From positions 1-64,000 of IMG/VR virus record IMGVR_UViG_3300047359_001782: 64,000 nucleotides of DNA, one strand, 5' to 3'. The notes below the pieces were generated by a model. The model made no database searches, was not told where the DNA came from, and saw nothing but the letters and a program-made list of their open reading frames with translations. The position numbers and the translations under genes are program-made. Origin of the DNA: a virus. Lineage: Duplodnaviria > Caudoviricetes. This document shows, in pieces, positions 3,312 through 59,075 of the stretch; the first letter of the stretch is position 1; the number at the start of each line of letters is the position of its first letter.

Positions 3312-3319
3312 AGTAAATA

Positions 3320-3348
3320 ATTATAGTTTATAATTGAATAGTTGTCAA
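3320..3348 (-). promoter_or_regulatory. perfect-consensus sigma70 promoter
   Basis: TTGACA-N17-TATAAT-N8-ATG(3311). Confidence 0.85.
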
Positions 3349-3349
3349 G

Positions 3350-38517: not shown

Positions 38518-38532
38518 GGCAGCAAGCTTTAT

Positions 38533-38558
38533 TACACCAAAATACAAGAATTTGTGTA
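38533..38558. promoter_or_regulatory. back-to-back GTGTA motifs
   Basis: TACAC at 38533..38537 and GTGTA at 38554..38558 (9 nt before ATG 38568). Confidence 0.6.
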
Positions 38559-38567
38559 ATAACTTTA

Positions 38568-41255: not shown

Positions 41256-41287
41256 AAAACCCCCTAATTTTCATTAGGAGGTTTTTT
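41254..41287. terminator. bidirectional intrinsic terminator
   Basis: AAAAAAC-CCCCTAAT-TTTC-ATTAGGAG-GTTTTTT hairpin with A and T tracts between convergent genes. Confidence 0.8.
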
Positions 41288-41309
41288 AAAATAGAGCTGT
41301 TAATTTAAA

Positions 41310-42584
41310 TTAAGCGAAATACTGATGTATTCCTGTGGCGTTTCTTGATCCAGAAATAAATAGTCCGTTTCCTGTATCTTGCGGTCCGCCGATTTGAGCT
41401 GTAAATGTTAAGTCTACTGTTTTATTATCTCCGATTGAGGAACTAAAGGATTCTCCTTCTAACCTTGCATTTCTAATAGTAAACAACATTGCAATGTCTC
41501 CGGTTCCGAATTGATCTGGCTCTCTTAATGTAAATTGTAAATCATGCTGTTCCTGATCAAAGAGAATGTCTGTAACATTACCTTCTTTTAAATCAGAAAG
41601 AATAGCGCTTACGGAAACATTAATATTTAATGGGAAATCCACAACTTTACTGTATCCATATGGATTTCCGAGTCTTTCAATAGTACTTCTTCCTACTGGA
41701 ATATCAATACTAAAACTCTGAATGTGAGCACTACCTGCATCATAATCTTTTTCTGGATCAGAAAAAGGAAGCGGCTCAAACAAACTGGCTCGACCTCCGT
41801 TACCTAATGCCATATGAATATCTCCTGGGCGTAAGCAAGAGACTCCTTCTTTACCAAAATCAATTTCACTGTCTACATCGTGAACTCCGCTAATCGCAGG
41901 AGGAATAGAAAACTCTCCCCCTGTCATTGGAATACCAAATTGATTGTTGATTGCCGGAAGCTCAAGGTCTTGAGTTCCTGTATAACTTCTTAAATTAAAT
42001 CCGTCAATTGTAACAGAGGCTGTTGGCATTCCACCTACAGAAGCTTCAACTGAATAGTTTGTAACAAAACCATTTCCAAGAGCTATTACATTTTTAAGGG
42101 ACTCATCATCTTCGTTTCCTACTGCATCTGTACCCTCTTGAGTCGTGATGATGAAAAAGTTTTTTCCTCCTGGGTTTTCCGCATCTTCAGTTCTTCCAAG
42201 AAGAATATCTCCTGCAATCGCTGATGTAGCTCCGTCAACGTTCATTCCTAGAATTTTTTCATTAATACCATTAGTTAGATAATATGAAAAATCTAATGTC
42301 ACTGTGGGGGGCTCAAGAGATACGGAATCAATTCTGGCTAGTTGGCCAAACTGATTAACGTCTTCTCTGTTTACTGTAAAACTATAATTTGCACTTTGAA
42401 CTCTGCGTAATTGCATAATTCCAGTGCGTATCTCTCCTCCTGCAGAAACAGCTTCTGCTTTGGTAGAGTATCCGGTTTTTGTGTTCCAATTGTCGCTTGA
42501 TACGCTGTAGTGATTACCTGTGGCATCAACTGTTCCAGCGTATAACGCCTCGCTTTGATAAATTACTCTTGCTCTATTTGCCAT
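41310..42584 (-). CDS. putative major tail tube protein
   Basis: Beta-rich, acidic, internally duplicated (VQSANYSF...NQFG / IQSFSIDI...ERLG); follows neck-like genes; ends at a strong terminator. Confidence 0.6.
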   Translation of the reverse strand: MANRARVIYQSEALYAGTVDATGNHYSVSSDNWNTKTGYSTKAEAVSAGGEIRTGIMQLRRVQSANYSFTVNREDVNQFGQLARIDSVSLEPPTVTLDFSYYLTNGINEKILGMNVDGATSAIAGDILLGRTEDAENPGGKNFFIITTQEGTDAVGNEDDESLKNVIALGNGFVTNYSVEASVGGMPTASVTIDGFNLRSYTGTQDLELPAINNQFGIPMTGGEFSIPPAISGVHDVDSEIDFGKEGVSCLRPGDIHMALGNGGRASLFEPLPFSDPEKDYDAGSAHIQSFSIDIPVGRSTIERLGNPYGYSKVVDFPLNINVSVSAILSDLKEGNVTDILFDQEQHDLQFTLREPDQFGTGDIAMLFTIRNARLEGESFSSSIGDNKTVDLTFTAQIGGPQDTGNGLFISGSRNATGIHQYFA

Positions 42585-42648
42585 AATATTTTATATATGA
42601 AGTTAAATTTCTGTTTAAAATTACATTTTTTATGTTATAAAGGGAACT

Positions 42649-43497
42649 TTATTGTCTTGGAAATCTTAAATTGGTTATTTCAAAATCTAAAAATCCAATA
42701 AATAATGATTGATCTATGTTTTTGTTTATTCTGTCACTAAGTTTAGATGCTCTCACATCTTCTATATGAAAAAGGTTTGTATTTTTTTGAGAAGCAAGTG
42801 TTTTATAGTTGAATCCAGATGCATCTCCAAATTCATTTAATGGGTAATCGGAGAATTCTAATTTTGAGAAAACTTCATTTTTTGAGTCTGAGAATGCAGA
42901 TAAAGCCCCATCAAGCTGAAAAGTATTTTCTGCAAAAATTACGCATCTTATATTTGTCGTCGTTTTATCTTCACCTCCAAACGCAAAAGCTTCGTTCTGC
43001 ACTAATTCTGGATTTACAAAAATTGCAGGTACAACTTGTTTGTGAGGAGCTATGCCGGAAGAGTCTTGCTTGAATCTTCCGTTCGAATCAAATTTACTTT
43101 CAACTATAAGCTGCTCTTCTGTTTGGTTGGTTATGTAGAAATTAAATTCTTTTACAGAATATTGCCCGCTTAATGTCATATTATCTGCCCCAAAAGAAGA
43201 ATCTAATATTACTCGTCCATCATCAAAATCTAATATTAAACCGTTGTCTCCTCTTTCCATAAAGACTCCATCGTTGTAAATTCCGCTAGGTACTTGCGCT
43301 CCTTCAACGCTTTCATCAAAAACCCACTGTTTATGAGGGCTGCTATAAGTGACAAATTCGTCTCCAAGTTGATCGTCTGTAGCCATTGGATAAAGAGAAG
43401 ACGCATAATTTTGATAAGCTTCCGCTTTGTTTGTGATGAAATTATCAGCCCAAAGCATGAAGCTTGTAGTTAATTCGTGTTGGAATTGCGGTTTCAT
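42649..43497 (-). CDS. putative tail terminator / neck protein
   Basis: Position upstream of the tube gene; VPAIFV...FAFGG motif. Confidence 0.4.
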   Translation of the reverse strand: MKPQFQHELTTSFMLWADNFITNKAEAYQNYASSLYPMATDDQLGDEFVTYSSPHKQWVFDESVEGAQVPSGIYNDGVFMERGDNGLILDFDDGRVILDSSFGADNMTLSGQYSVKEFNFYITNQTEEQLIVESKFDSNGRFKQDSSGIAPHKQVVPAIFVNPELVQNEAFAFGGEDKTTTNIRCVIFAENTFQLDGALSAFSDSKNEVFSKLEFSDYPLNEFGDASGFNYKTLASQKNTNLFHIEDVRASKLSDRINKNIDQSLFIGFLDFEITNLRFPRQ

Positions 43498-43499
43498 TT

Positions 43500-44123
43500 T
43501 TAAAAGTTTTTCGCGGAAACTCTTGAAGCTTCAATTGAATTTAAATTATCTTCAAATTTTGATAGAATATCTTTAATATATGGTATTCTAACCATTCCTC
43601 CTGAGCTTTTATTTTTGTTTTGGAAGCCTGCTCCAGATCGACTGGTTGCGCTCAACTTATTCATGTACTGACCGAGATTAGGGATTCCTCTACCTTCTAT
43701 TTCTCTGAGCCAGCTAGCTCCATTTGACCAAGGCATAGGGGTGCTTGAATATAACTCTTGTAAGGAAGGGGATGTTACAATATATGTCCAAATGAAACCA
43801 TGCATTCCTATGCTTCTGTTTTTTATAAAAATATTTGTCTGTTCAAGTAGATTAGATAAAGGGCTAATTGGGTCAACCCCTTCTTGAAAACCTATAAACC
43901 CATATAGATTTCCCTCTGGCAAAGTATTGGTGATATTCGAAGCGCCTGAGCCCGCCTTAAGTTCTCTAGTGACAGGGTGGCTTTGAAAGTCCCTAATCAT
44001 TTGATTTTTTACGTTCCTAAATTGCTTTTCAATAATCAATCTTGCCTGCACAAGCAGATCTTTATCTTTTTTTACTTGAGATTTTACTGAATTTCTAATT
44101 GATCTACTGAGTGCTTTGGCCAT
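43500..44123 (-). CDS. putative tail completion / neck protein
   Basis: Synteny in the head-tail joining block; basic composition. Confidence 0.35.
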   Translation of the reverse strand: MAKALSRSIRNSVKSQVKKDKDLLVQARLIIEKQFRNVKNQMIRDFQSHPVTRELKAGSGASNITNTLPEGNLYGFIGFQEGVDPISPLSNLLEQTNIFIKNRSIGMHGFIWTYIVTSPSLQELYSSTPMPWSNGASWLREIEGRGIPNLGQYMNKLSATSRSGAGFQNKNKSSGGMVRIPYIKDILSKFEDNLNSIEASRVSAKNF

Positions 44124-44583
44124 TTTGTTCTATTGGTCTTAAAAATAATGTTATGAATTGAACTTTGTCAAAAAGCCCATGAGCTCTAGGGTCAGATTCT
44201 ACATGAAACATTCTTCCATCTAATTCTACTCTTTTCGCTTCTTTTAAATAATCATAATCCTCCAGTTTTAATTTTATTCTGACTACGCTACTAGGATCGG
44301 GCCTATTAACTTTTATTTGTGTTCCCGCTTCTCCAAATTGCTCAAGAGTTCTGTCGGTGTCATACCTTATTCTTGCTTTAAAAACTTTTTTAACAGGAAC
44401 GTTTTGTACGCTAGGGGTCGATTTTCCAGAATTTCCGTATAGATAATTGTAATTAGGGTCTGTACTTATAATTACTTTCTTAGCTTCTTTGTAAACAATA
44501 ATATCCCTTCCGAATGTATCATGAAGGTTAAGTAAGTTTTCGGCAATACTCTCTTTTTCTTCAGCTGAAAAGAAATCTGTCAT
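44104..44583 (-). CDS. putative head-closure / adaptor protein
   Basis: Synteny and beta-rich C-terminus; GTGTA-N9-ATG places the start at 44583. Confidence 0.35.
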   Translation of the reverse strand: MTDFFSAEEKESIAENLLNLHDTFGRDIIVYKEAKKVIISTDPNYNYLYGNSGKSTPSVQNVPVKKVFKARIRYDTDRTLEQFGEAGTQIKVNRPDPSSVVRIKLKLEDYDYLKEAKRVELDGRMFHVESDPRAHGLFDKVQFITLFLRPIEQNGQSTQ

Positions 44584-44592
44584 GAATAGATT

Positions 44593-44617
44593 TACACTAA
44601 ACATTATTTTTTGTGTA
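44593..44617. promoter_or_regulatory. back-to-back GTGTA motifs at the divergence point of the structural genes
   Basis: TACAC at 44593..44597 and GTGTA at 44613..44617. Confidence 0.65.
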
Positions 44618-44655
44618 TCTCATTGTAGGCACAAGGTCAAATAAAGGTAAAATTA

Positions 44656-44943
44656 ATGGAAGCAGAAGACATTTTTAAAAAATGTTATCACAGGAATACA
44701 GTCTCCTTATTTAAAGGATTTCTGATTATTCTTGAGGATTTATATAAAGAGCATCAAATAAGTTTTGATAAGTTAAAGGATAATCTCCCAGAGGGTTGCA
44801 TGCCTGTTGTTGATCAGGCCGATTATTTCAGCGAAGAGAAATTAAAACATCTTCGAAAAAAAACTTTAGATATTGGCAATGAAACTATTAGAAATATCGA
44901 GAGCGAATTAGATAATTATACTATAGGATTTACATTTAAATAA
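44656..44943 (+). CDS. hypothetical protein
   Basis: 95 aa; AAGGT SD-like element upstream. Confidence 0.65.
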   Translation: MEAEDIFKKCYHRNTVSLFKGFLIILEDLYKEHQISFDKLKDNLPEGCMPVVDQADYFSEEKLKHLRKKTLDIGNETIRNIESELDNYTIGFTFK

Positions 44944-44945
44944 TC

Positions 44946-45770
44946 ATGACAGAATCAGCAACAAAAGAAAAATTAGAAACAATGGACGATACTCGAAAAA
45001 AGCTGAGAGAAATCTACAGCTTCACTTTTGAGAAAGAAGAAAAAACGAAAAGGACCGAGACTAGCGAAGTCACTAATCCTGAAACTGGCGAAAAGGAAGA
45101 GGTCTCTGTAACTAAAGAGGTTTCTGAAAAAGTTCCATACAGAATTATAATGAAGCAGCCTACACGAAGGCAAATTGAAGAAGCTGAATTAGAGTTTAGT
45201 GTTGAAATGAGTAACTGCATTAAAAAAGGTGTTCTTACGAAAGCTATGTTAGCTAAGAAATACAGTGATACCGGAGGTTTATTGGCGGAAGATGACGCAA
45301 AAGCTTTAACTAAAATGTATGTTTCTTATGGAGAGCTATCTCAAGAAAGCGAAAAACTAAATGTAAAAACTACTGGGCGCACAGAAAAAGATGACGCAAG
45401 AATTAAAGAAATATCTGGTGAAATCTCGTTGTTAAGAAAAGATATTATTAATGTAGAAACTTCGTACGCTAATTTATTTAATCACACGGCAGACGTTCGT
45501 GCGGAAAATAAAGTGATTCAGTGGTATATTTTAAATTTAACACATATTCAAAAAGATGATGAAGATAGCTCTAAGCCTTTGTTTGAAGGTAGAGATTTTG
45601 AAGATAAGCTTCAGCGTTACTACGAACTAGAAGAAGAAGGCGACGAAGTTTATGATATAATCGGTGGAAAAATTGCAGCTTTATTTAGCTTTTGGTATTA
45701 TAGTTCTGGCGCCGTGACTAGAGCCGACTTCGAAAAACTTGATAGCGATATCGAAGAAGGTAATATATAA
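44946..45770 (+). CDS. putative tail assembly chaperone 1
   Basis: Acidic helical protein two genes upstream of the tape measure gene. Confidence 0.45.
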   Translation: MTESATKEKLETMDDTRKKLREIYSFTFEKEEKTKRTETSEVTNPETGEKEEVSVTKEVSEKVPYRIIMKQPTRRQIEEAELEFSVEMSNCIKKGVLTKAMLAKKYSDTGGLLAEDDAKALTKMYVSYGELSQESEKLNVKTTGRTEKDDARIKEISGEISLLRKDIINVETSYANLFNHTADVRAENKVIQWYILNLTHIQKDDEDSSKPLFEGRDFEDKLQRYYELEEEGDEVYDIIGGKIAALFSFWYYSSGAVTRADFEKLDSDIEEGNI

Positions 45771-45773
45771 TAT

Positions 45774-46760
45774 GTGGAAACCACAAGGCGCAGAAGAGTA
45801 TTTAGGGATGTAGTCAGAGGTTATTCCACTACAGTTCTAGACGACAAAGTCGTATACATTAAGCATCTTACTCCTCATGATCAGGTAGAGCTTGAGGAAA
45901 TAGAGGAACGTTATTTCGAATCTGCGAAGAAGAGAGGTGTCCCAACCGAACAGGATATGCTTGACTATCTAAAGGAAGAGGGGCAATGGACGGAAGAGGA
46001 TGAAAGAATTATCACTGAAAAAACTTTATATGTTGAAAACTTAAAAACAACATTAACTAAATTAGTTTTAAAAGCTGAAATTGATCAACAGAAAAAGGTA
46101 ATTGAAGAAGAAAGCTCTATTCTTACTCGCAAACAAAACGAAAAAATTAATTTAATTGGCAATACTTGCGAAAGATATGCAAAAGAAAGATTAAATGATT
46201 TTTATATGATTTATTCTTTTTATAAAGATGAAGATATGAGTTGTAAGTTGTTTAGTGAGAACGAGTTTGATGAATTAGAAAACGAAGATATAAAGCTTGT
46301 TATAAATAAATATAATCAAGTATTCGAAGGATTCTCAGAAGAAAATATACAATATACTGTTCTTGAAGATTTTTATAATCCTTATCTTAGTTTTGCTGAG
46401 GACAGTCTTCAATTTTACGGAAAACCATTTTGTGAGTTAACATATAATCAAATAAGATTAATCGTTTATACTAGAGTATTTAAAAATATATTTGACACAA
46501 ATGAAAATATACCAGAAAAAATAAGAAAAGATCCTGCGAAACTTTTAGAATTTGGTAGTAGCTCAAGAGAAGAAAGAGAAAAAATAAAAGATAAAGTGAC
46601 GAGCGGGGACGGAGGTACTATTGTTGGGGCCAAAAAAGAAGATTATGATCGATTGGGAATAGAAAGACCTACTGGCAGCGTTAATTTACATGAAGAAGCC
46701 AAAAAGAAAGGTGGTAGCCTTAACATGGAGGATTTAATGAAATTGCACGGAGTCGTTTAA
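45774..46760 (+). CDS. putative tail assembly chaperone 2, paralog of the preceding gene
   Basis: Directly upstream of the tape measure gene; GTG start in the same frame as the preceding ORF. Confidence 0.45.
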   Translation: METTRRRRVFRDVVRGYSTTVLDDKVVYIKHLTPHDQVELEEIEERYFESAKKRGVPTEQDMLDYLKEEGQWTEEDERIITEKTLYVENLKTTLTKLVLKAEIDQQKKVIEEESSILTRKQNEKINLIGNTCERYAKERLNDFYMIYSFYKDEDMSCKLFSENEFDELENEDIKLVINKYNQVFEGFSEENIQYTVLEDFYNPYLSFAEDSLQFYGKPFCELTYNQIRLIVYTRVFKNIFDTNENIPEKIRKDPAKLLEFGSSSREEREKIKDKVTSGDGGTIVGAKKEDYDRLGIERPTGSVNLHEEAKKKGGSLNMEDLMKLHGVV

Positions 46761-46800
46761 TTTTTAGTGTATAGATACCTTATCTAAGGAATAAGGAAAA

Positions 46801-49800
46801 ATGGCTATTAATCTTGACGTACACGGTAATACACAACCTCTTGAGGCAGCGGTTCAAGCTGCAGTAAATAGAATTCGCAGAACGCCAATTAAAATAACTG
46901 TTGACGATAAGGGTGCGACGCAGCCCTTAGGCAACATGAAACGGGGCGCTGACGAATTTACAAAGTCAATGGAAGCGGCAAATGCTCGTATTATAGCATT
47001 CGGCGCCTCTATGGCAATTATAAATGGCGTAGCAGATTCTTTTAAGGCCATGGTTAGAAATATGGTTGAGGTTGAAAAATCTCTTGCAGATATTAATGTT
47101 GTTATGGGCTTGAATGCTCAGAGCCTTGAAAAGTTCAGCGATGGATTGTTTAAAGTCGCGAAAGAAACGGGAGCGGCATTTAAAATAGCCGCCGATGCAG
47201 CAACAGAATATGCTCGTCAAGGCCTCAACGTAGAGGAATCTCTTAAAAGAACCAAAGACGCTCTTATTCTTACTCGATTAACAGGAATGGATTCTGCAGA
47301 GGCAGTAAAGTCTTTGACTGCCGCCATGAATACTTACGGGCATCAAATAAAGGATACTACTCAATTGGTGAGTAAGTTTGCTGCGGTAGATGTAAAGTTT
47401 GCTGTTAGTGCAGAAGATTTTGCTGACGCTATTTCCAGAACTGGTGCTGCAGCAAAAGGAGCTGGCGTGGATATTGATGAATTAATAGGCTTGGTTACCG
47501 CTGCTCAACAACAAACTGCTCGAGGCGGAAAGGTTATTGGTAACTCGTTTAAAACAATTTTTACTCGTATCGGAAGGACAGATACATTAAATCAATTGGA
47601 AAATCTTGGAATTGCTGTTAGAGATATTGAAGGAAGAACTCTTGGAGCAAAGCGAATACTTAGTGATTTAGCAAATACATTTGATACATTATCTGAAGCT
47701 CAAAAGGCTCAAATAGCTCAAACTGTTGGTGGAGTTTTCCAAATCAACGTTTTAAAGGCTGTTCTTGGTGACGCCGCAAAACAAAATGGTATTCTTGCAA
47801 ATGCCACGCAAATATCTGCAAACGCAACAGACGAGGCTATAACAAAAAATGAACAATTAAGAAACACAATGGCCGCAATGGCCACAGAAACAGGTCTCGC
47901 AATAAAACAAGTTAGCGCTCAAGCGGGCGAAATAGCATTAGGTCCTGGAATAGAAAAAGTGCTTAATACAGTTAAGGCTATCGCTGAAAATATAAGTGGT
48001 TCATTGGGTGATGGAGAAGGCGCTGGAAATGAATTCGCTAAAGGTTTATTAAGAGGTATTGGCAATGTTATTACGGGTCCTGGATTAGTAGTTTTAACGA
48101 CGGTATTTATAAAGTTATTTGGTCAAGCATTTAAGTTTACCAAAGACAGCTTAGGATCTCTAATTGGCATAACCAATGAAGCTCAAAAACAAAAAGCCAT
48201 TCAAACATCGATTGTTACTTTATTTGGGCAAAACGCCGCGTTAAGTAAGGAAATGTTGCGCACAGATATAAGCAGGACAGAAAAAGAAAAAATAATTTTA
48301 AGTTTACTTAAAGCTCAAGTTGCTGAAGCTAATGTTTTAAATAACGTAAGTAAGCAGGCCGCTGCAACTTTATATACTAAAGGATATGGGGCAAACTTAA
48401 CCCCAAGAAAAGGTCGCGCCTACGGCCATATTCCTAATTTCGCTCATCCAGAGAGAGAGCAAGCTGCCAAAGGTGGATATTCTGCAGGAAATATTCGAGA
48501 AATGAATATGCCTGGAGAGGGCCCAATTATTTACAATAGCTCTGAGACAGTTAAGAATTTTAAGGGAATGAATCAGCCTGCAATTATGCCTCCTCAATCA
48601 AGCAAAGCTGGAAAAAACTATCAACAAGCATTTGGGGATATACATGGATTTGATCCGTATGCTGCAGGGGGATATATACCGAATTTTGCGAAAAAAACTG
48701 CGGCCGAATATTTAGAGAATGCAAGAAATGCAAAAACAACCGCTAATTTAACAAACATTGTTAAGGGGCGGCAAATAGGAGGGGTGACATTCTCCCCCGA
48801 ACAACAAGCTGCTGCAGCTGCAGCTTTACGAGAAAGATCTGCAGCAATAAAAACCGTATCAACCTCTAGTCAATTAAAAGCAAAAGATAATGATGTTATC
48901 AGTCAGATATATAATAAAAGTGGTAAAATGGTTTTGTTTGCCGCATCCGCCCAAGGGGGAGGTTCTTATGCTGGAGACAGAAAGAAAAACATTATTTATT
49001 TAAATCCCAATCCAACAAAAGGAGGTTCGAAGTTTAGCACAACCAATAAAACGGGTATGGTACCCGTGAATGTTCCATATTTTACTATTGGTAAAAACGA
49101 TGAAGAACGAGCTAAGAACGATCCTAAAATTAAAAATAAGATCGAGGGGGACTTGGTCAATCAGGCGCAAAAAACCACAAATCATTTAGTAAGCACAATA
49201 TTCAAAGAGGAGTCTATACCTAATGTAATAAAACCTGGTGACGTTGCTGTTACAGTTGGTAATGTTTTTGAAAAAATTCTTATGTCTGTGCAAAAGGGGG
49301 TTGCAAAGGAAGCTTATGATGCAGACCCTCCAGGTAATGCTTTATTGGATATTCCTAGAGGCGGTAGAGATGCACTGTGGAATTTGTTTGGCGCGACTCC
49401 GCTTGGAAGTCTTGGCGCGGAAGCTAAAATAGCCCTAGGAAGTGACGGCGACGCTGCGCACCTTAAATCTGCTGCAGAAAAATTTTACAAGATCGATAGT
49501 TATAAGGGCCCAGGAGGCAAAAAAGCCAAAGCATTTGCTCCAGCAGGACAAGCCCAAGTAAAAAGAGGTGGAACTAAAGCTTCAGGCCACATCCCTAATT
49601 TCGCAAAAGTAAAATGGTCCATTGATAAAAAGAAAGGTCAATATGGATTGACCGGGTCTCATATGGAATTAATGCAATTCGTGGATTACCTTGAAAGAGC
49701 TGGCGTCGAACCTAAGAAACTAGAAGTTTTAAAAACAAGAATTAAGAAAATCCAATCAAACATAGGCAAAAAACGAACAGAATTTAAGCAAAATAATGTT

Positions 49801-52800
49801 CCAGGTTTTGGCAGGTCTGGAGCAAGGTATTACGACCAACTTAAGGCTATCAGTCAAGGTAGCTATCTTGATACAAAAGGAACTTTCATAAAAGACCTTG
49901 GTAAGTATGTTAAAGATTTTAATCGAGGTGGAGGTATGTTTGCTGCTGGTCTAAATGCAGGCAAAGGTTTTATACCTAACTTTGCAGCAGATCCCTTAAC
50001 TGATGCAATAGGCAGAGAGCGCGACGCAGGAATTCCTGTTTCTCAAATCAGGGTAGGAACGCATCCAGCCTTAATGAATAAAGGTAATCCAATTGGTCTT
50101 GGCGTAACAAATACAAAAGATGAGCCGAATGGTTTACGTGATGTGTTTGGTTCGGCTAATGGATTTGTGCCGAATTATGCTTCTGAAGATTATTTTAAAA
50201 CAAAAGATATAGATGATTCTTCTTTAAACAGGAAAGCAAGAAATGAGTTAATGCTAAAAGTAAATAAAGAGCTCAAAAAAGAATTAAGTCAACTACCAAA
50301 AGGTAGAAGAGCTGCAGAAAATGTAGCATCGATAATGGAAAAACTTACTGGAAAATACAAGCTTAATGAGCAGGCCGTAACTCGAGTTTCTCAGTCACTT
50401 TCGTCATCTAAAGGGTATATTGATAAATTAAATGTTCGTAGACAACAATTATCTTCTGCGTATCAAAAAAGTATGCTTGGAAAAGTTAGTTCTTCAGCAG
50501 GTAAAATGTTTGGCGGTGGAGTAGGGATGACAGCAATGATTGGAGCTCCAATGGCAGCAGGATTTTTGCAATCAGAAGGCGCTGGACAAACAGGTGCGGG
50601 GAGCGCTATGTATGCAGCAGGTGGCGCTTTACAAGGTGCAGCGTCAGGGGGTATGATGGCGAGCATGATTGCACCGTTTTTTGGGCCTGCAGCTCCTTTA
50701 GTTATTGGGGTTGGAGGTTTAATGGGAGCAGTAAGCGGTATGATGTCTGCAAGTGAAGCAAATACAGAGGCTCTAAAAGAAAACGCTCGACAAGAAAATA
50801 TTAGAATAAGAAATATGGCGACAACGTCAAGCTCTGTACTTGCTGAAAACATAGATCCGAATTTAAAATTATCCGAAACTGAAATGACCGGCACTTATTT
50901 CAAACAAAATCAAGAAAAACTTGGGGACATCGGAATTTTAGAAGCTCTAAAAACTTTTGGGCTTGGAGATCTAACTAACGTTTCTAAAGATAATAGTTAT
51001 GCGAAAAAGCTTGAGGAATCTATGGCTAGAATTGAAAAATTTACAGGTGAAAGCCCAGTTTCGGCCAGAAGGAGTGGGGGATTGGGAAAATTTCAAAGAG
51101 ATTTGTTGATTCAAGGTATGAAGGGTAGAGAAAAAGAGGTAATTACTGACTCCTCGATTATAGAATCTTTTGGCTTCGAAGGTAAGGATGAAGTTCTCGG
51201 CGAGGATTTGATTAAAAAAATAAAATCTACGCAGGGCGGCACTGGATCCGAAGGAGAGAAGAGGATAAATGCGATGATGTTTGGTTTAGTTAAGATACTC
51301 AATGAAAGAGTTAAGTCTCAAAAAAAGATTGCGAACGGCTTAATTCTTCAACTCAATCTTCAGAAAGCCATGATTCACGCTCAGCAAAAAAGCGCCGAAG
51401 CTCAATTGGATATTAAAGCTGAGTACATTGATATGTCGAATTCATTAAAGACCGAAAAACAGTTAATGGGTAGTTTAATAAGCGAAGAAAGGAAAGCTCG
51501 TATAGATTTTATTGGGGCTATTAATAAAGCTGAAGAGGCTTATGAGTTGGGAACAAATCAAGCCAAATCTGAATTTAAAAAAGGACTCATAAGTGATGTT
51601 TCTTCCGGGCAAAACGCTGGTTTAACACAGGCTTTAAAGCAAAAGCTTTTTAAAGATTTGAATGAGGCAGCTTTAGAAGATAAAACAACAGTAGATCTTA
51701 CTAACGAATTAAACAGTAAAAGCGCTGAAGATTTATTACAAATATTAAAAGATATTGGAGTTAATGAGGACCAAGCAAATAAAATAGTAGAAAATAGAAG
51801 CCTTTTATATCAAAATCAAATTACATTATTAGGTAAACAAAAAACAATCTCAGACTCTCAAGCTAATTCAGAGTTAACAATAAATAATATACTTGGCAAA
51901 AGAAGAGAGTTGCTTGAAGATATGAATCAGAGTATTCAAAACTTTAATAGAAACTCTAGTTTTCTTTCTGAAAGTTCTGCTCTTGATAAAAGAATAGCGG
52001 ATGCAGGTAGGTCTGTAGGGGGATATACCTCAAAGCAAAAACAGTTGCAAATCGATAGATCTGATTTAGAAAGTAGAATCGTTCCTGGTATGGTGCGAAA
52101 AAGTTCAGGCGCTAAATTAGGAATATTACAACAAGCCTCGAAGGATCTTGAGATTGGCGGATTTACGGACGAAGAAATTGATAAAATATTGAAAATGGAA
52201 GGCAAAGAAGTTGATATAAGTTCGATATTAGAATCACGATTCAAGGACGCTGGCGGAAAAAATGAAATAACTAATTTGCAAGATGTACTGGGAGGATACG
52301 GTAAAGATTTGTTGAGCGATGAAGAGTTTCAACAAACTGTTGGGGGTGGAGAGACTCGCCAAGAGATGAAGCAACGCCTTGAAGAATTAAAAATTTTAGA
52401 TCAACAAAGATTAGGAGTAAACGAAGACTTAAATAAAGAAATAAAAAACATAAACGATAGCCTTATTCAACAAAATATATTAAAAGAAAAGGGCGTTCAG
52501 GCTGTAGAGAGCGAATTATCTGCTAGGGAGAAAAATGATAGGTATATGCGCGGGCAGTCTGTTACTATCGATGGACAGGTTGATGATAGGTCTGCAATAA
52601 CTAGAGGTATGTCTAATTCATTTGCCGAAATGAGAGATCAAGCTCAATATATGCATTATGAAATAGGCAAAAGAGTTCCTAATTTATTGGCTGATGGATT
52701 AGCTGAAGCTATGCAAGTAGCTTTAAATGGCGCAGATGATCTTGGTGATGCAATGACTCAAATAGGAATAAATTTTTTGCAATCTATACAGTCTGCATTT

Positions 52801-54975
52801 TTACAGCAAGCCGCTCAAGGTATTGTTGGAATGATGGGTTTTAATGCCACTAATAGATATAATGGTGGACCTATAAGGAATTACTCCAAAGGCGGATCTG
52901 TTCCCGCTATGGTTTCCGATGGAGAATACCTTATGAGTAAAGAAGCTGTTAATAGGTACGGCGGAAGCTTTATGCATACTTTAAATTCTGGCGGTAAAAT
53001 ACCTAAATACGCTAATGGAGGATGGGTTGACTCAGGCTTGAGTGGCGCTTTTGCATCTACCCCATCTACTTCATCTCCTCTATCACCTCCTTCCACGTCT
53101 TTCGATAATTTCTTCGCTCCTCAACCAGAGTTTAGCGTTCTCCCTCCAAAGAGTTTTAAGCAAAAAATGATGGGCTTTATAAATGATGATGACAATATGA
53201 AATTGTTTGAGCAGGAGTATCAAAAAGCTCAAGCTGAAGCTTTTGCTCCAAGCACTGCTCTTGCAGATGTGTTTAGTAATCCTCCTGCGTCGCCTATATT
53301 TACCGAACCTCCTTCAGAGTTTAGCGTTCTTCCTCCAAGAAGCTTCAAAAATAAAATGATGGACTTTCTTGGTGACTCAGATAATATGAAATTGTTTGAA
53401 GACCAGTATGGTTTAGCTCAAAAGAAGGCTGCTGGAATAGAAGCGTTTTCTTTAAAAAACCAACCTAGCCCCCAACAAAAAATGGAGAAAGCAACTTCCC
53501 CATTCAACTGGAAACAGAATAGCGATGGAACTGTTGATTTTGGATCAACACCATTCGAAACTCCTTTGAGAAGGTCAACTACCGTTAGTGATATAGATGG
53601 AACTGGAAACACTAAAAAAGGTAATTGGGATCCATTTGCTTTAATTGACCCTAATAAAATCCAAGGGCCACCTGCAGTAGATCAAAGCGCAGACATTCTT
53701 AAGCTCGTAGAAAAGCAATTGGTAAAAGAAAGATCTCAAGAAGTACGGCAAAAGGGTGCTAATATATCTCAAATAAGGAAGAAATACGATTACCTTTTAA
53801 ATAGTCTAAGAAATAAAGATGAAAATGTTTTTGATTACGGCAAAACACAGGATGAGACTTTTTCGGATTTAATATATTCTACTGAGAATGGTAAATTCAG
53901 GGGTTGGGATACTTCTGCATATGGCCCGACCCCAAAAAAGAAAGTTCGATATACAAACTCGCTAGATAAATGGTTGCGGGGGTATATTCACGAAAAAAGA
54001 AATCCGCCTTTTAATAAGAGGGGCTTTTCTAAAGGAGGAAGAGTTCAGAATTTCGCAGAAGGAGGGGATGTTGAAAAGCTTATTCCAGAAGAAGGGTCTG
54101 CGTTAGCTGAAAACTTTGGAGGAGGAAGAGCGTTTGAGTCAGGGAGAGCCTATCAGTCTAAGGCTATGAGCGGATATTTTTACAGTGGATTAGCTGGCAA
54201 TGTCGGAATAGAAGATGACGCTTCAAAGCTTAGAGAAGTTCTTGCGGAAGAAGAGCGTCAGCGACAAAAAGCTTTAATGAAAAAAAGGAAAAAGAAGCAG
54301 TTTTGGCAAAGTTTAGCGGGAACGGCTTTAAGCGCTGGAATAGCTTGGGGAACTAAAAATCTTGGCGATATGTTTCAAAAACCAGATGCAACGTTAGATC
54401 TGTCTAGAGAAGCAATACTGAACGCGCCTAGCGAGTCTTTTAATACGGGTTTAGGAGATAGTTTTGGCTCTTTTGATAATATTAGTAGTCTAAGTAGCTC
54501 TTCTCTTGCCAATCAGTATGATTATTTTGGCAGGCCTAAAATAGGTAGAAACAGTGGAGGTTTTATTAGAAAATACGCGGGGGGTGGGTATATTTCAGGT
54601 AAATCTGGTATAGATCAAATTCCGGCAATGCTAAGTGAGGGTGAATATGTTATTAAGGCAAGTAGCGCAAGAAAATTAGGAAAGTCAACTCTTGACAGTA
54701 TTAATGCTGGTAAATTTAATGATGGCGGACCTGTATCAGGGGAGTTTGGTTCATCCGATAGTAATATTTCTGGGGGTAATACTAATAATATTAATATTTC
54801 AATAAATATGGAGCGAGGTAAAGCTTCTAGCGAAAGCGAACAAAAATCAGGTCAAAATCCAGCAGAACAATCAGAAGAGCAAAGCAGTAATGTCGCTCTA
54901 GCAGATAAAATTAAACAGCAAGTAGTTTCAGTTATAGTTGAAGAACAAAGGCCTGGCGGTTTATTAAGCGGTTAA
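46801..54975 (+). CDS. tail tape measure protein (TP901-type N-terminal domain), 2724 aa
   Basis: A.EYARQG, L....GMD..EA, AVSAEDFA.AI.R.G, G..IGNSFKTIFTRI; C-terminal VPAM.S.GEY motifs; upstream of the tip genes. Confidence 0.92.
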   Translation: MAINLDVHGNTQPLEAAVQAAVNRIRRTPIKITVDDKGATQPLGNMKRGADEFTKSMEAANARIIAFGASMAIINGVADSFKAMVRNMVEVEKSLADINVVMGLNAQSLEKFSDGLFKVAKETGAAFKIAADAATEYARQGLNVEESLKRTKDALILTRLTGMDSAEAVKSLTAAMNTYGHQIKDTTQLVSKFAAVDVKFAVSAEDFADAISRTGAAAKGAGVDIDELIGLVTAAQQQTARGGKVIGNSFKTIFTRIGRTDTLNQLENLGIAVRDIEGRTLGAKRILSDLANTFDTLSEAQKAQIAQTVGGVFQINVLKAVLGDAAKQNGILANATQISANATDEAITKNEQLRNTMAAMATETGLAIKQVSAQAGEIALGPGIEKVLNTVKAIAENISGSLGDGEGAGNEFAKGLLRGIGNVITGPGLVVLTTVFIKLFGQAFKFTKDSLGSLIGITNEAQKQKAIQTSIVTLFGQNAALSKEMLRTDISRTEKEKIILSLLKAQVAEANVLNNVSKQAAATLYTKGYGANLTPRKGRAYGHIPNFAHPEREQAAKGGYSAGNIREMNMPGEGPIIYNSSETVKNFKGMNQPAIMPPQSSKAGKNYQQAFGDIHGFDPYAAGGYIPNFAKKTAAEYLENARNAKTTANLTNIVKGRQIGGVTFSPEQQAAAAAALRERSAAIKTVSTSSQLKAKDNDVISQIYNKSGKMVLFAASAQGGGSYAGDRKKNIIYLNPNPTKGGSKFSTTNKTGMVPVNVPYFTIGKNDEERAKNDPKIKNKIEGDLVNQAQKTTNHLVSTIFKEESIPNVIKPGDVAVTVGNVFEKILMSVQKGVAKEAYDADPPGNALLDIPRGGRDALWNLFGATPLGSLGAEAKIALGSDGDAAHLKSAAEKFYKIDSYKGPGGKKAKAFAPAGQAQVKRGGTKASGHIPNFAKVKWSIDKKKGQYGLTGSHMELMQFVDYLERAGVEPKKLEVLKTRIKKIQSNIGKKRTEFKQNNVPGFGRSGARYYDQLKAISQGSYLDTKGTFIKDLGKYVKDFNRGGGMFAAGLNAGKGFIPNFAADPLTDAIGRERDAGIPVSQIRVGTHPALMNKGNPIGLGVTNTKDEPNGLRDVFGSANGFVPNYASEDYFKTKDIDDSSLNRKARNELMLKVNKELKKELSQLPKGRRAAENVASIMEKLTGKYKLNEQAVTRVSQSLSSSKGYIDKLNVRRQQLSSAYQKSMLGKVSSSAGKMFGGGVGMTAMIGAPMAAGFLQSEGAGQTGAGSAMYAAGGALQGAASGGMMASMIAPFFGPAAPLVIGVGGLMGAVSGMMSASEANTEALKENARQENIRIRNMATTSSSVLAENIDPNLKLSETEMTGTYFKQNQEKLGDIGILEALKTFGLGDLTNVSKDNSYAKKLEESMARIEKFTGESPVSARRSGGLGKFQRDLLIQGMKGREKEVITDSSIIESFGFEGKDEVLGEDLIKKIKSTQGGTGSEGEKRINAMMFGLVKILNERVKSQKKIANGLILQLNLQKAMIHAQQKSAEAQLDIKAEYIDMSNSLKTEKQLMGSLISEERKARIDFIGAINKAEEAYELGTNQAKSEFKKGLISDVSSGQNAGLTQALKQKLFKDLNEAALEDKTTVDLTNELNSKSAEDLLQILKDIGVNEDQANKIVENRSLLYQNQITLLGKQKTISDSQANSELTINNILGKRRELLEDMNQSIQNFNRNSSFLSESSALDKRIADAGRSVGGYTSKQKQLQIDRSDLESRIVPGMVRKSSGAKLGILQQASKDLEIGGFTDEEIDKILKMEGKEVDISSILESRFKDAGGKNEITNLQDVLGGYGKDLLSDEEFQQTVGGGETRQEMKQRLEELKILDQQRLGVNEDLNKEIKNINDSLIQQNILKEKGVQAVESELSAREKNDRYMRGQSVTIDGQVDDRSAITRGMSNSFAEMRDQAQYMHYEIGKRVPNLLADGLAEAMQVALNGADDLGDAMTQIGINFLQSIQSAFLQQAAQGIVGMMGFNATNRYNGGPIRNYSKGGSVPAMVSDGEYLMSKEAVNRYGGSFMHTLNSGGKIPKYANGGWVDSGLSGAFASTPSTSSPLSPPSTSFDNFFAPQPEFSVLPPKSFKQKMMGFINDDDNMKLFEQEYQKAQAEAFAPSTALADVFSNPPASPIFTEPPSEFSVLPPRSFKNKMMDFLGDSDNMKLFEDQYGLAQKKAAGIEAFSLKNQPSPQQKMEKATSPFNWKQNSDGTVDFGSTPFETPLRRSTTVSDIDGTGNTKKGNWDPFALIDPNKIQGPPAVDQSADILKLVEKQLVKERSQEVRQKGANISQIRKKYDYLLNSLRNKDENVFDYGKTQDETFSDLIYSTENGKFRGWDTSAYGPTPKKKVRYTNSLDKWLRGYIHEKRNPPFNKRGFSKGGRVQNFAEGGDVEKLIPEEGSALAENFGGGRAFESGRAYQSKAMSGYFYSGLAGNVGIEDDASKLREVLAEEERQRQKALMKKRKKKQFWQSLAGTALSAGIAWGTKNLGDMFQKPDATLDLSREAILNAPSESFNTGLGDSFGSFDNISSLSSSSLANQYDYFGRPKIGRNSGGFIRKYAGGGYISGKSGIDQIPAMLSEGEYVIKASSARKLGKSTLDSINAGKFNDGGPVSGEFGSSDSNISGGNTNNINISINMERGKASSESEQKSGQNPAEQSEEQSSNVALADKIKQQVVSVIVEEQRPGGLLSG
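53128..53421 (+). repeat. imperfect direct repeat with 189-bp period inside the tape measure gene
   Basis: EFSVLPPKSFKQKMMGFINDDDNMKLFEQEY vs EFSVLPPRSFKNKMMDFLGDSDNMKLFEDQY; GAGTTTAGCGTTCT identical in both copies. Confidence 0.85.
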
Positions 54976-55855: not shown

Positions 55856-56754
55856 GCGATAAATTATTAAGATTTGAAGATGGTAAAATTACTATTGGGG
55901 GTAAAGATTTATTGGCTAGCTCTGCTAATTTATCTATATCTCCTAAGCTTGAGGCGGAAAGAGTATACGGCGATTATGATAGTTCTATTGTTGGCGCGAA
56001 AACAGAGTTTGTAAAATTTGCTCCTGTTGGAGGATTAACTGGTAAATTATCTATAAATTTTTATATATCTTCTGATAAATTTACTATTGATGGTAATCCT
56101 AATTCTATAGAAAGAATGTTTGATATTGCTGCTGGCATGGATGAGCGTTCTATTAATAATAATATTGTTGGTAGATATAGTTTTAATAATATGTATTTAA
56201 ATTCTTTTAGTTTTGAAATGTCTCCTTTTAGAATGGTGATGGCTAGCGCCTCTTACGACATATATGGGTCAATTGAAAGAGTGATCGATCAGAGATTTCG
56301 TCAATCTAATGTAAATTTCGCGCACGGACTTAAGTCTTTCGGGAATATACTTGCCAGTGGGGTTGAACAAAATGAATTTGAAATTTCTAAGTTAAAATAT
56401 AGTATCGTTGTTAATAGAAAAATACATGATCAAATACGAGCTAATGAAAATACTTCAATAAATACTAGCCCTAGCGGAACTGTTCCTGTGAGATGTTCTG
56501 TAGAAAATATAGAAAAAGAAATGAGAATCGAAGGTAATGAAATTATTGAAAAAATCAACGCATACGGAGATAAGCAAACATCTTCCGCTGCAGAGGGAAT
56601 AGAAGATTCTAAGATAGAAGCTTTTCTTTTATCTCTTGAGGGAGAAAAGGTTGCAAGGTTTTCCGCGAAAGGCAAGATTCAGACTCAAGACATTGCTATA
56701 TCAGAAGGTCAATATGCTACAGCTAATATAACGATAAAAGAAATTATTAAATAA
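55852..56754 (+). CDS. putative tail tip protein
   Basis: Beta-rich; YLNSFSFE strand; located between tape measure and M-like genes. Confidence 0.45.
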   Translation: MSDKLLRFEDGKITIGGKDLLASSANLSISPKLEAERVYGDYDSSIVGAKTEFVKFAPVGGLTGKLSINFYISSDKFTIDGNPNSIERMFDIAAGMDERSINNNIVGRYSFNNMYLNSFSFEMSPFRMVMASASYDIYGSIERVIDQRFRQSNVNFAHGLKSFGNILASGVEQNEFEISKLKYSIVVNRKIHDQIRANENTSINTSPSGTVPVRCSVENIEKEMRIEGNEIIEKINAYGDKQTSSAAEGIEDSKIEAFLLSLEGEKVARFSAKGKIQTQDIAISEGQYATANITIKEIIK

Positions 56755-59075
56755 TGAATAATTTAGAAGGGCTGTTAAAATCTCAAAACGTAACTCATGT
56801 AACGAATTATTCTGGTGAGTTTCAGACTGGCGTTGATTATAAAAAATTTGACTTCGTATATTATACTGGAGATGGTAGATTTTATTACGCCAAAGAAGAT
56901 GCGATTAATGGCGGAGGAAATTTTATAGAGGCAAGTCAAAGATTAGCTTTAGTTCCTGATGGGCCAATCTCTAGCGAGGGTCAAACTCACTATATAGTTG
57001 ATTTAATGAATAGGCCCGATGCTGTTAATTTAGAGTTGCGAGTTGGCCAAGTTTTAAATCTAGAAGGTTGTACTGGTGATAATAGCGGAATATATAGGGT
57101 TCTTGATATAGAAAAAGATATTAAGTCCTTGAATAATGACCCTGATCTCGAGGGAACCGCTATACAGGTTCTGCCTGTTAGTGGTGGGTTTAATGATTTT
57201 GAACCTATCGGACCTCAAACTATTTCGCTGTCTTCTATAAACACTTATCCATCTGATAATTCAAACGCCTGGACTGCGGATAAATTTTTCTTTGACGCCG
57301 ATTATAATTCAACAGCTAATTTTAAGGCAAATAATTATAAGTATCAATATGGAAATGGTTATTATATAGTTCAGCCAAAAAACATTAATTCATTAACTTT
57401 TGAATTAGATTTAGAATTTAAAAATAGAACTAATAGAGAATCGAATGCAATAGTTCATTTCCTTGAAAATCATCAGGGGCAGCACGAAGAAGACATGCCT
57501 TCTCCTAATCTAAAATATTCTCAAGGTATATCTGGTTTTAAATGGGATGGTAATGCAGCGTTTTTTCCTTATAATTCAAACGAGATGCAACTTAAGAAAT
57601 TTTATTGCAATGAATGGAGCCACGCGTTAAATTTTGAAAATAGTAATGATATTACTGTTAGATTTAGAAACTTAGATACATCAATATTAAATAAATCGGA
57701 GGGGCTTTTTCTTAATCCTGCAGATGAATATTCTGATACTGAATATTATGAAAAAAATGATGTTGTTTATTCTGATGAAAATAAAAAATTTTATTATTGG
57801 AGCGGAGAATCTCCTGAGGTGGGCAAGTCTCCTGTCGAAGCTCAGGATTCTTGGACTAGGGAAAATGGTTATTTTAAAGATGTTAATACTGAGTATTGGA
57901 GTAGGTCATTCTTTTGGAAGCCTTCATTGAGTTTAAACGTCACTCAAAAGCCAAGGATGAATGAAATAATGTCTGAAGGGGGATATTCTCAGTTGTATCG
58001 TGATGGAATAAATGAAAGCCTTCTTTCTTTAGAGTTAGAATTTAATAATAGAAACGATAGCGAAGCTTATGCAATACTACATTTCCTTGAGCAACATCTA
58101 GGTTATATACCTTTTGAGTTTAAGCCCCCGTCTCCATACGAAGCTTCTAAAAATTTTATATGTCAGCAATGGCAACATAGATACACTTATAAAAATAATC
58201 ACTCTATTAAGGCTGTATTTGAGCAATTCCCTTTGAATTTTACCGCTTCAGAATACGATAATCATATTAGCCCCCCAAAAACTCTGCGGGCTGAATTATT
58301 GTGCGCTAACCCTGTAATTGTTGCAGAGGTTAATGTTGATGAACCTGTCTATTTGGGTGGTCTCGCTAAAAAAAGAGTGGAGCTTAGGAATATAGGAGGA
58401 GAAGCTGTTACAGTATATAATTTAAGGCAATTAGACGAGTATAGTCCTTTATCAATAGTTTCTCAAACTTCAGAAGATGATGTATGTATTGTAAACTTAA
58501 ATTCATTAAACTCTGATGATTTTATTTATCAGTTAGATGACGATAATTCCCTGCCTTTTAATTTATCTAATCAATACGTTAAAGTTGATAAATCTTACAC
58601 TGAAGGATTAGAGGGTGGCCAGTTCTTTACTGTTATGGAAAGAGACGGCGATAACTACACTAGGAAGACTTATAATGGTCTAATAGATAAGTATTTTCAG
58701 GATAATAGGGGTAACATAAAATCAATTGCTAGGGCACAATTGGGAGAATTAATAAGTTCTGCGTTGCATAGCGAATTTCTCATTAAGAATTTTTTTATAA
58801 AAAATAAAACAAATCAAATTCCTGGTGGTCAGAGCGCTTTTTTTGACCTAGCCTTTTATGGAGAAATAAATCCGCTAAATTATGATTTTATATACCACAT
58901 GAATAATGAAAATGCTGAGCTTGGTGATTTAGTTTTTGTTACTGAAGGAGGGGAGGAAGTCTTAATTAGCTCTTTGTTTGGGCAAGGTTATTACGGTGGC
59001 GGAATTAATGTTGGAAATTCTTCTTTAGAAGATAATATACTTATTAATGCGTCTATATATATAAGTGATGTCTAG
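56754..59075 (+). CDS. distal tail protein with two lambda gpM-like domains
   Basis: Two copies of G.GY......IN.....L.LEF.NR...E..AI.HFLE...G...F. Confidence 0.7.
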   Translation: MNNLEGLLKSQNVTHVTNYSGEFQTGVDYKKFDFVYYTGDGRFYYAKEDAINGGGNFIEASQRLALVPDGPISSEGQTHYIVDLMNRPDAVNLELRVGQVLNLEGCTGDNSGIYRVLDIEKDIKSLNNDPDLEGTAIQVLPVSGGFNDFEPIGPQTISLSSINTYPSDNSNAWTADKFFFDADYNSTANFKANNYKYQYGNGYYIVQPKNINSLTFELDLEFKNRTNRESNAIVHFLENHQGQHEEDMPSPNLKYSQGISGFKWDGNAAFFPYNSNEMQLKKFYCNEWSHALNFENSNDITVRFRNLDTSILNKSEGLFLNPADEYSDTEYYEKNDVVYSDENKKFYYWSGESPEVGKSPVEAQDSWTRENGYFKDVNTEYWSRSFFWKPSLSLNVTQKPRMNEIMSEGGYSQLYRDGINESLLSLELEFNNRNDSEAYAILHFLEQHLGYIPFEFKPPSPYEASKNFICQQWQHRYTYKNNHSIKAVFEQFPLNFTASEYDNHISPPKTLRAELLCANPVIVAEVNVDEPVYLGGLAKKRVELRNIGGEAVTVYNLRQLDEYSPLSIVSQTSEDDVCIVNLNSLNSDDFIYQLDDDNSLPFNLSNQYVKVDKSYTEGLEGGQFFTVMERDGDNYTRKTYNGLIDKYFQDNRGNIKSIARAQLGELISSALHSEFLIKNFFIKNKTNQIPGGQSAFFDLAFYGEINPLNYDFIYHMNNENAELGDLVFVTEGGEEVLISSLFGQGYYGGGINVGNSSLEDNILINASIYISDV

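Follow-up and report, generated by a model that had tools for sequence, protein, structure and literature searches.

Apparent exchange of hypervariable segments at a motif repeated in a tailed phage's tape measure protein

Tape measure proteins (TMPs) are usually seen as rulers to which a few domains have been added. The TMP considered here, of 2724 amino acids (aa), is encoded by a virus of the Duplodnaviria (Caudoviricetes), IMG/VR record IMGVR_UViG_3300047359_001782, in a stretch of 64,000 nucleotides (the window) which forms the first 64 kb of one 87,401-bp phage contig. The protein carries five copies of a short motif of the form A-x-G-(H/Y/F)-(I/V)-P-N-(F/Y)-A, and comparison of sequences supports the exchange of whole segments at this motif among close relatives. 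The TMP is probably a conserved frame carrying hypervariable cassettes, in which the motif serves as a joint selected at the protein level. On this reading a whole clade of uncultivated phages, apparently marine, would have a TMP organised like an adhesin, with cassettes replaced wholesale between near-identical phages.

Architecture of the tape measure protein

The open reading frame (ORF) at 46801..54975 is identified as a TMP by its PF10145 domain (98.8 bits against a gathering cut-off of 33.2, E 4.8e-28; Pfam), its matches to thirteen PHROG tape-measure families (best 2.1e-53) and the tail genes downstream, which encode the minor tail proteins phrog_14 and phrog_18 and a J-like central fibre (phrog_31, 2.5e-107). 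The order of the tail genes is the same in the phages L001 and L003, two viral contigs syntenic with the window. The protein fits the TP901/PhageMin_Tail type, combining long helical stretches (helices modelled for aa 501-1200) with glycine-rich hydrophobic segments. Its hydropathy peaks at aa 424-438, 1247 and 1292-1309, and aa 1346-2000 are rich in E, K, Q, R and L. The features on which the argument turns are given below in window coordinates, the motifs as located by pattern scan.

46801..54975, + strand: TMP gene, 2724 aa (ORF, PF10145, PHROG matches, tail-tip genes downstream)
47158..47733, + strand: PhageMin_Tail domain PF10145, aa 120-311, within the conserved N-terminal 540 aa (Pfam)
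48418..48444, + strand: motif 1, AYGHIPNFA, aa 540-548
48445..48663, + strand: module A, 73 aa, near-invariant (identity 0.85, many invariant columns)
48664..48690, + strand: motif 2, AGGYIPNFA, aa 622-630, left edge of the hypervariable cassette
48691..49578, + strand: cassette B, 296 aa, hypervariable (identity 0.14)
49579..49605, + strand: motif 3, ASGHIPNFA, aa 927-935
49606..49959, + strand: cassette C, 118 aa, optional (segment family 10)
49960..49986, + strand: motif 4, GKGFIPNFA, aa 1054-1062
49987..50154, + strand: module D, 56 aa, near-invariant (identity 0.88, invariant columns)
50155..50181, + strand: motif 5, ANGFVPNYA, aa 1119-1127, bounding the second variable block on the left
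50182..51342, + strand: second variable block, with glycine-rich hydrophobic segments at about 50506-50781 (low identity, hydropathy)
51343..51369, + strand: conserved island ILQLNLQKA, bounding the second variable block on the right in L003 (where the L003 match resumes; family consensus)

A preliminary description of this DNA had reported five motifs, and all of them were recovered at the coordinates it gave, two being written there in a longer form (AAGGYIPNFA, starting at 48661, and AGKGF..., at 49957). The core [IV]PN[FY]A lies at aa 544, 626, 931, 1058 and 1123. When the residues of the TMP were shuffled 20,000 times, one match arose in 85 shuffles and two in none, so that chance does not explain five motifs. 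Across the six reading frames of the 87,401-bp genome, [IV]PN[FY] occurs at the five TMP sites and otherwise only once, in a frame of 25 codons. The segments between the motifs measure 73, 296, 118 and 56 aa, in agreement with the earlier estimates of about 75, 300, 120 and 60 aa, and they are indeed mutually unrelated, as had been claimed (all pairwise local-alignment z <=0.9). The idea that A and D are repeats of one unit was dropped, as their pairwise score is at the level of noise (z = -0.9).

A search for homologues with TMP aa 500-1160 as query returned 467 proteins at E<=0.001 among 8000 scored candidates, and the counts that follow refer to the best 120 of these. The homologues are TMP-sized (1504-3432 aa), and those that carry a name are TP901-family tape measure proteins. 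Source labels on some of them point to Bacteroidetes or Crocinitomicaceae bins and to TARA samples. Strict copies of the motif number two to six in all 120 proteins: two in 11, three in 44, four in 60, five in 4 and six in 1. Motifs 1, 2, 4 and 5 of the window are near-universal. The aligned position of motif 1 holds the motif in 108 homologues, the other 12 rows being gapped; that of motif 2 is filled in 115, its final A often being replaced by N, I, K or S; and the column of motif 4 retains the IPNF core in all variants listed. At the position of motif 3, 85 rows are wholly gapped, and the motif is present in most of the other 35. The MAFFT alignments used here misplace a few terminal residues of the window fragment. 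Across 273 motif copies from 65 distinct TMPs of viral contigs, G (position 0), P (+3) and N (+4) are invariant, while +1 takes Y, F or H, +2 takes I or V and +5 takes F or Y. Alanine stands at -2 in 83% of the copies and at +6 in 75%.

Conserved and variable stretches of the protein alternate sharply. Mean pairwise identity, calculated for 114 of the 120 proteins (six were skipped since the anchor patterns failed), is 0.77 in the N-terminal block, 0.85 for A with its flanking motifs over 90 aa, 0.14 in B, which falls into 67 clusters at 80%, and 0.88 for D with its motifs. It is 0.22 over the 380 aa past motif 5 and 0.45 over the last 300 aa of the TMP. Clustering of the segments yields one collinear plan, in which the N-terminal domain is followed by A, B, an optional cassette, D and the rest of the protein. 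The slot between B and D holds either nothing or a cassette of 86-93, 120 or 243 aa, and each optional cassette arrives with one extra motif; motif 3 is found only where such a cassette sits between B and D. Cassette C (family 10) is present in 4 of the 120 homologues, and one fragment has an additional motif-bounded cassette beyond C. The motif sits wherever a frame element (the N-terminal domain, A or D) meets a variable one (B, the optional cassettes or the block past motif 5).

Some homologues depart from this plan. In P0041, aa 913-927 consist of tandem motifs one residue apart with no cassette between them, an arrangement which resembles an emptied cassette slot. Three homologous TMPs of 3432-3521 aa (P0103, L066 and L068) have a low-complexity repeat insertion of about 590 aa (GSKNQ...PQERQ...) past motif 1, beyond which motif 1 and module A recur in a second copy that is partly degenerate.

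Relatives of this TMP among cultured phages are remote. In 50,697 phage records, tblastn matches cover at most the N-terminal 17% of the protein at less than 30% identity, and modules A and D have no match at E<=1. The closest parallels are the PF10145/TP901 TMPs of Bacillus phage Stills (2243 aa), Lactococcus phage WRP3 (3334 aa) and Bacillus phage Sophrita (3094 aa), which are likewise very large, have PF10145 near the N-terminus and are encoded upstream of tail-tip genes. N-terminal similarity to these cultured giants is 22-27% over about 400 aa and ends at about aa 550; [IV]PN[FY] is absent from all three of the TMPs examined, which sets them apart from the window TMP. The Stills TMP is also annotated with LysM and lysozyme domains, whereas Pfam detects neither in the window TMP. 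Because TMPs of 2243-3334 aa are annotated in cultured phages, the earlier argument that 2724 aa would imply a tail of about 400 nm, and hence hint at cargo, does not force that conclusion. In both WRP3 and Sophrita, the gene directly upstream of the TMP gene (L077:4086-5078 and L078:4201-5193) encodes about 330 aa and is annotated as that of a site-specific recombinase. In the library searched, 'IPNFA' returned no relevant paper, and among the matches listed for hypervariable, mosaic or recombining TMPs no title describes a design of motifs and cassettes.

Segment exchange among close relatives

Comparison with the two syntenic contigs, whose flanking genes mostly encode proteins 94-100% identical to those of the window, places the boundaries of exchange at the motif. 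Ten proteins flanking the TMP are 85-100% identical between the window and L003 (eight of them 99-100%), and the TMP itself is 76% identical. For L001, most flanking proteins are 92-98% identical and the TMP 69%. Against these relatives, protein identity is about 100% up to ...GGYIPNF and is lost at the next residue; it is regained at ...IPNFAKVKW, kept through C and D, and lost right after ...GFVPNYA. The same pattern is found in the DNA. L003 matches the window in blastn at 98.0% over 38303-48686 (10.4 kb), has no match across B, matches again at 97.0% over 49575-50181 and then has none until 51343, after which identity is 88.7%. For L001 the edges lie at window positions 48687, 49591 and 50181, and the matches to both phages stop exactly at 50181, the end of motif 5. 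The B alleles of the window, L003 and L001 are three unrelated sequences, that of L003 being of a different length. On the far side, the second variable block extends to ILQLNLQKA in L003, and in L001 its edge lies near aa 1930.

A wider scan covered 73 viral loci, 47 of which have a complete TMP together with the upstream gene. The upstream protein is at least 95% identical in 58 locus pairs. TMPs are identical in 8 of these, and in 49 of the 50 pairs whose TMPs differ there is a sharp identity step at one or more motifs. Counted singly, 133 of 209 steps in the close pairs fall at a motif, comprising 88 of 112 from high to low identity and 45 of 97 from low to high; many of the low-to-high steps occur at another sequence, GG.IRKYA.GG.

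Segments on the two sides of module D also move separately. Among 86 protein pairs that share B (at 80% or more), the block past motif 5 is unrelated in 75 and shared in 3, and of the 25 pairs that share that block, 20 have unrelated B. B alleles and the block past motif 5 thus reassort independently. The preliminary description had proposed that segments are swapped at the motif, and alignment of relatives' TMPs bears this out, through the breaks in L003 and L001, the gain of cassettes together with a motif, and the reassortment of alleles.

What the motif and the cassettes may do

If the TMP is a conserved frame with hypervariable cassettes, exchange would most simply proceed by ordinary homologous recombination in the conserved DNA of the frame. 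The only survivors would be chimeras joined at module edges, and the motif would mark these edges without being a DNA site. The motif, with A and D, would keep contact with a conserved phage partner or preserve a fold needed for tail assembly; its molecular job could be that of a dock to such a partner, a folding joint or a cleavage site. It is quite possible, if short of probable, that the cassettes are the parts of the ejected TMP which meet variable entry factors of the host envelope or inner membrane, or defences that block injection. In that case the tail would contain a second host-range or counter-defence locus. The motif also offers a handle for finding cassettes in metagenomes and marks potential joining points for chimeric TMPs in laboratory phages.

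The closest known design, by analogy, is that of the gp38 adhesins of T2/T6-type phages. In these proteins, hypervariable segments are parted by conserved glycine-rich motifs, and exchanges take place within or near the conserved motifs (PMC3157838). The gp38 protein resembles the window TMP in that short, strictly conserved motifs part hypervariable segments of one virion protein and natural chimeras join at or near the motifs. The two differ in that gp38 is an adhesin on the tail-fibre tip and the window protein a ruler in the lumen of the tube. The gp38 motif is glycine-rich, whereas here it is of the type G-aromatic-I/V-P-N-aromatic; the variable parts of gp38 are short loops, whereas the cassettes here are of 56-490 aa. 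Receptor binding is shown for gp38, and the window TMP is likened to it in design, by analogy only.

A role of TMP segments in entry has a precedent in lambda-like phages. Their dependence on ManYZ is set by a local region of the TMP; the nuclease SNIPE associates with the TMP, and mutations that escape it map to a TMP (PMC13190303). In lambda gpH and related TMPs, a local region which differs between similar proteins thus sets the need for a host factor and the action of a defence. The passages on gpH describe no motif-bounded cassette design such as that of the window TMP.

Several observations weigh against the frame-and-cassette interpretation. In the close pairs, 76 of the 209 breakpoints lie away from the motif. 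The right edges of the second block are found at other conserved islands, so the motif is not the sole boundary marker. The 10 kb upstream of the TMP are 85.7% identical in DNA between the window and L001, which makes L001 a weaker 'isogenic' comparison than L003. For distant pairs, a sharp step at the motif might stem from unequal constraint and not from recombination. For the family as a whole, transitions fall at motifs in 2579 of 3219 and 1292 of 3164 cases, and de-replicated steps in 512 of 1851 against about 54 expected, figures which also point to exchange but are inflated by shared ancestry and unequal constraint and serve as secondary evidence. The fold of B is uncertain: modelled by itself from a 32-row alignment, B has a mean pLDDT of 53.9. 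A partner for the motif was not found, and the role proposed for the cassettes is drawn by analogy.

Another explanation is that the TMP is an ejected polyprotein, in which a protease, or Asn-dependent self-cleavage at PN|F, would sever the chain at the motifs and some of the pieces would be delivered effectors. Processing and ejection of TMPs occur in other phages. Every cassette is bracketed by motifs, and the invariance of G, P and N is what a catalytic or recognition site requires. In an AlphaFold model of aa 501-1200 (mean pLDDT 60.6, with parts of B at 80-95), each of the five motifs falls in a linker (pLDDT below 50) that joins better-predicted parts, an arrangement that fits both this reading and that of frame and cassettes. 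The same model qualifies the earlier statement that the segments are non-helical: A and D do contain strands and none of the segments is a coiled coil, but B and C have long helices.

The search for cargo speaks against this explanation. No signature of an enzyme or effector was detected in any segment by Pfam or fold searches. Beyond PF10145, Pfam has no match at E<=0.1 in the whole TMP or in six sub-segments. Foldseek returned nothing at E<=0.001 (best E 0.73 in the PDB and 0.011 in a viral library), although a fold could be missed with models of such low confidence. VIA-align wide, likewise run with a low-confidence model, reached a best Z of 4.8 with matches of the helix-hairpin type only, and the ESM Atlas gave no usable match for B. 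Neither B nor C has relatives outside TMPs: the window B allele has 4 relatives in 1.84 billion representatives, all of them motif-carrying TMPs or pieces of TMPs, and the relatives of C are TMP pieces only, with no protein of 67-214 aa among them. Modules A and D, which such cutting would set free as well, belong to the most constrained parts of the TMP and so are not cargo; a structural role fits them better. Nor was a protease family seen in the ORFs scanned in the window and genome, which were covered in part on a contig that may itself be partial. Enzymes or imported effector domains as TMP cargo are thus unsupported, and the swappable effector domains of the preliminary description find no support, given the conservation of A and D (0.85 and 0.88) and the lack of Pfam matches, confident folds and non-TMP relatives for B and C. 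The polyprotein explanation as a whole is unlikely.

Asn-dependent maturation cleavages free membrane-active peptides in some animal and insect viruses. By analogy, P-N-(F/Y) might be a self-cleavage or protease site, so that the ejected TMP would split at each motif and free the hypervariable cassettes and the glycine-rich hydrophobic block separately in the host envelope, as a 'penetration polyprotein' whose parts recombination can swap, parallel to these viral systems. This reading is distinctly unlikely.

A third explanation places the signal in the DNA, with the motif codons acting as a recombinase site or as designed microhomology and the peptide being a by-product. Boundaries of similarity do lie within a few bases of the motif codons, and the number of cassettes changes in units of motif plus cassette. 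However, all synonymous codons are used at the motif, roughly in gene-wide proportions; the five window copies differ at synonymous sites, while the amino acids are invariant. Codons that vary so freely point to selection on the protein and not on the DNA, and make a dedicated DNA site unlikely. Other conserved peptide islands serve equally well as boundaries, and the 328-aa gene upstream of the window TMP bears no relation to the genes annotated as recombinases that lie upstream of the TMP genes in WRP3 and Sophrita. The motif as a DNA recombination site, which had been suggested earlier, finds no support in view of the codons and these other islands, and is very improbable.

That there is no exchange at all, and that B and the block past motif 5 simply evolve very fast under relaxed constraint or hypermutation, is scarcely credible: the alternation of conserved and variable parts alone would give sharp identity steps at the motif in distant pairs, but L003 shows no DNA similarity across a B of different length beside a 10.4-kb flank identical at 98%, B alleles and the block past motif 5 occur in different combinations, and the 87-kb genome has no template-like repeat of either. 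A diversity-generating retroelement (DGR) was considered as the source of hypermutation and rejected, as neither 48691-49578 nor 50182-51342 has a repeat elsewhere in the 87-kb genome by self-blastn. Hypermutation is also unlikely because the alleles cannot be aligned and differ in length.

C-terminal modules and the rest of the genome

The C-terminal third of the TMP contains the following features.

52882..53022, + strand: copy 1 of the C-terminal module (YSKGG...), with the degenerate sixth motif GGKIPKYANGG at its end; paralogue of copy 2
53020..54024, + strand: insertion of about 335 aa specific to the clade (anchor spacing), internally duplicated at 53126-53210 / 53315-53399
54574..54729, + strand: C-terminal module copy 2 (YAGGG...IPAMLSEGEYVI...FNDGG); family profile match to the Douge TMP, and phrog_13338

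The preliminary description had seen a second series of motifs, (Y/F)xxGG, in this region. All six of its named sites exist, at aa 2028, 2070, 2409, 2418, 2592 and 2639, but they form no independent series, being starts of a module, part of a degenerate motif or the end of an insertion; the pattern also occurs at aa 620, 1040 and 1271. At YSKGG (aa 2028) and YAGGG (aa 2592) a conserved module of about 50 aa begins, present in two copies, and phrog_13338 spans aa 2587-2639. YANGG (aa 2070) closes GGKIPKYANGG, a degenerate sixth copy of IP.(F/Y)A, and the IPG[FY] form of this sixth motif coincides with some breakpoints in the family. The insertion of about 335 aa follows directly past YANGG, with FSKGG (2409) and FAEGG (2418) at its end. 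Both anchors around it were found in 34 of 122 proteins, and they stand 370-376 aa apart in 3 of these and 12-71 aa apart in the other 31. The internal duplication of the insertion is 78.8% identical over 85 nt.

The C-terminal module is shared with a TMP whose structure is resolved in small part. A family profile matched residues 959-1012 and 1411-1462 of the mycobacteriophage Douge TMP, gp16 (8zdo_S), at E 4.4e-06; phmmer of the C-terminal region against PDB sequences returned nothing, so gp16 was found by the family profile only. The window TMP and Douge gp16 each have two copies of YA.GG...D..(P)A.(L/V)S.GE(Y/F)(V/I)...(A)S......L.D.(L/I)N.G, about 50 aa in length. In its structure (PDB 8zdo), the Douge TMP is a trimer that fills the lumen of the tube, of which residues 1658-1699 only are resolved, outside the shared module (PMC13033339). 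In the profile search that gave the gp16 match, no match reaches the IPNF region.

Two ORFs upstream of the TMP gene, of 274 and 328 aa, matched nothing in PHROG, Pfam or the PDB sequences. Further upstream on the + strand, a 914-aa ORF (window 38511-41255) is 100% identical in L003 and 69% identical in L001, with neighbours at 94-98%. It has a weak cadherin-like Pfam match only. From these identities, it looks like another fast-changing or exchanged virion gene. Downstream of the TMP gene, the L-like protein (356 aa, 59065-60135) is 83-85% identical to its counterparts in L001 and L003 and the phrog_14 protein (773 aa, 56754-59075) 92-94%. The products of the two genes just upstream of these are 96-100% identical.

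Other genes lie past the end of the window. Downstream of the J-like gene, a 2037-aa ORF at genome positions 65039-71152 (L004:5039-11152) matches CBM_5_12 at 2.5e-09 and is probably a fibre or host-binding protein. An 862-aa ORF at genome positions 83173-85761 (L005:6173-8761) matches phrog_15433, 'tail sheath', at 2.7e-49 and has no Pfam match. The 'tail sheath' match sits oddly with the L, I and J genes of a lambda-like tail tip, and either the PHROG label is loose or the tail is of an unusual type. Since related contigs reach 190-204 kb, the 87-kb contig may be part of a much larger genome. In its last stretch, genome positions 86963-87401, direct repeats run up to the contig end; their period is about 147 bp and their identity 85-96%. 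Near the other end, on the - strand of the window (2226-5635), lie genes for an rIIA-like protein (761 aa, 6.5e-91) and an rIIB-like protein (361 aa, 7.6e-60).

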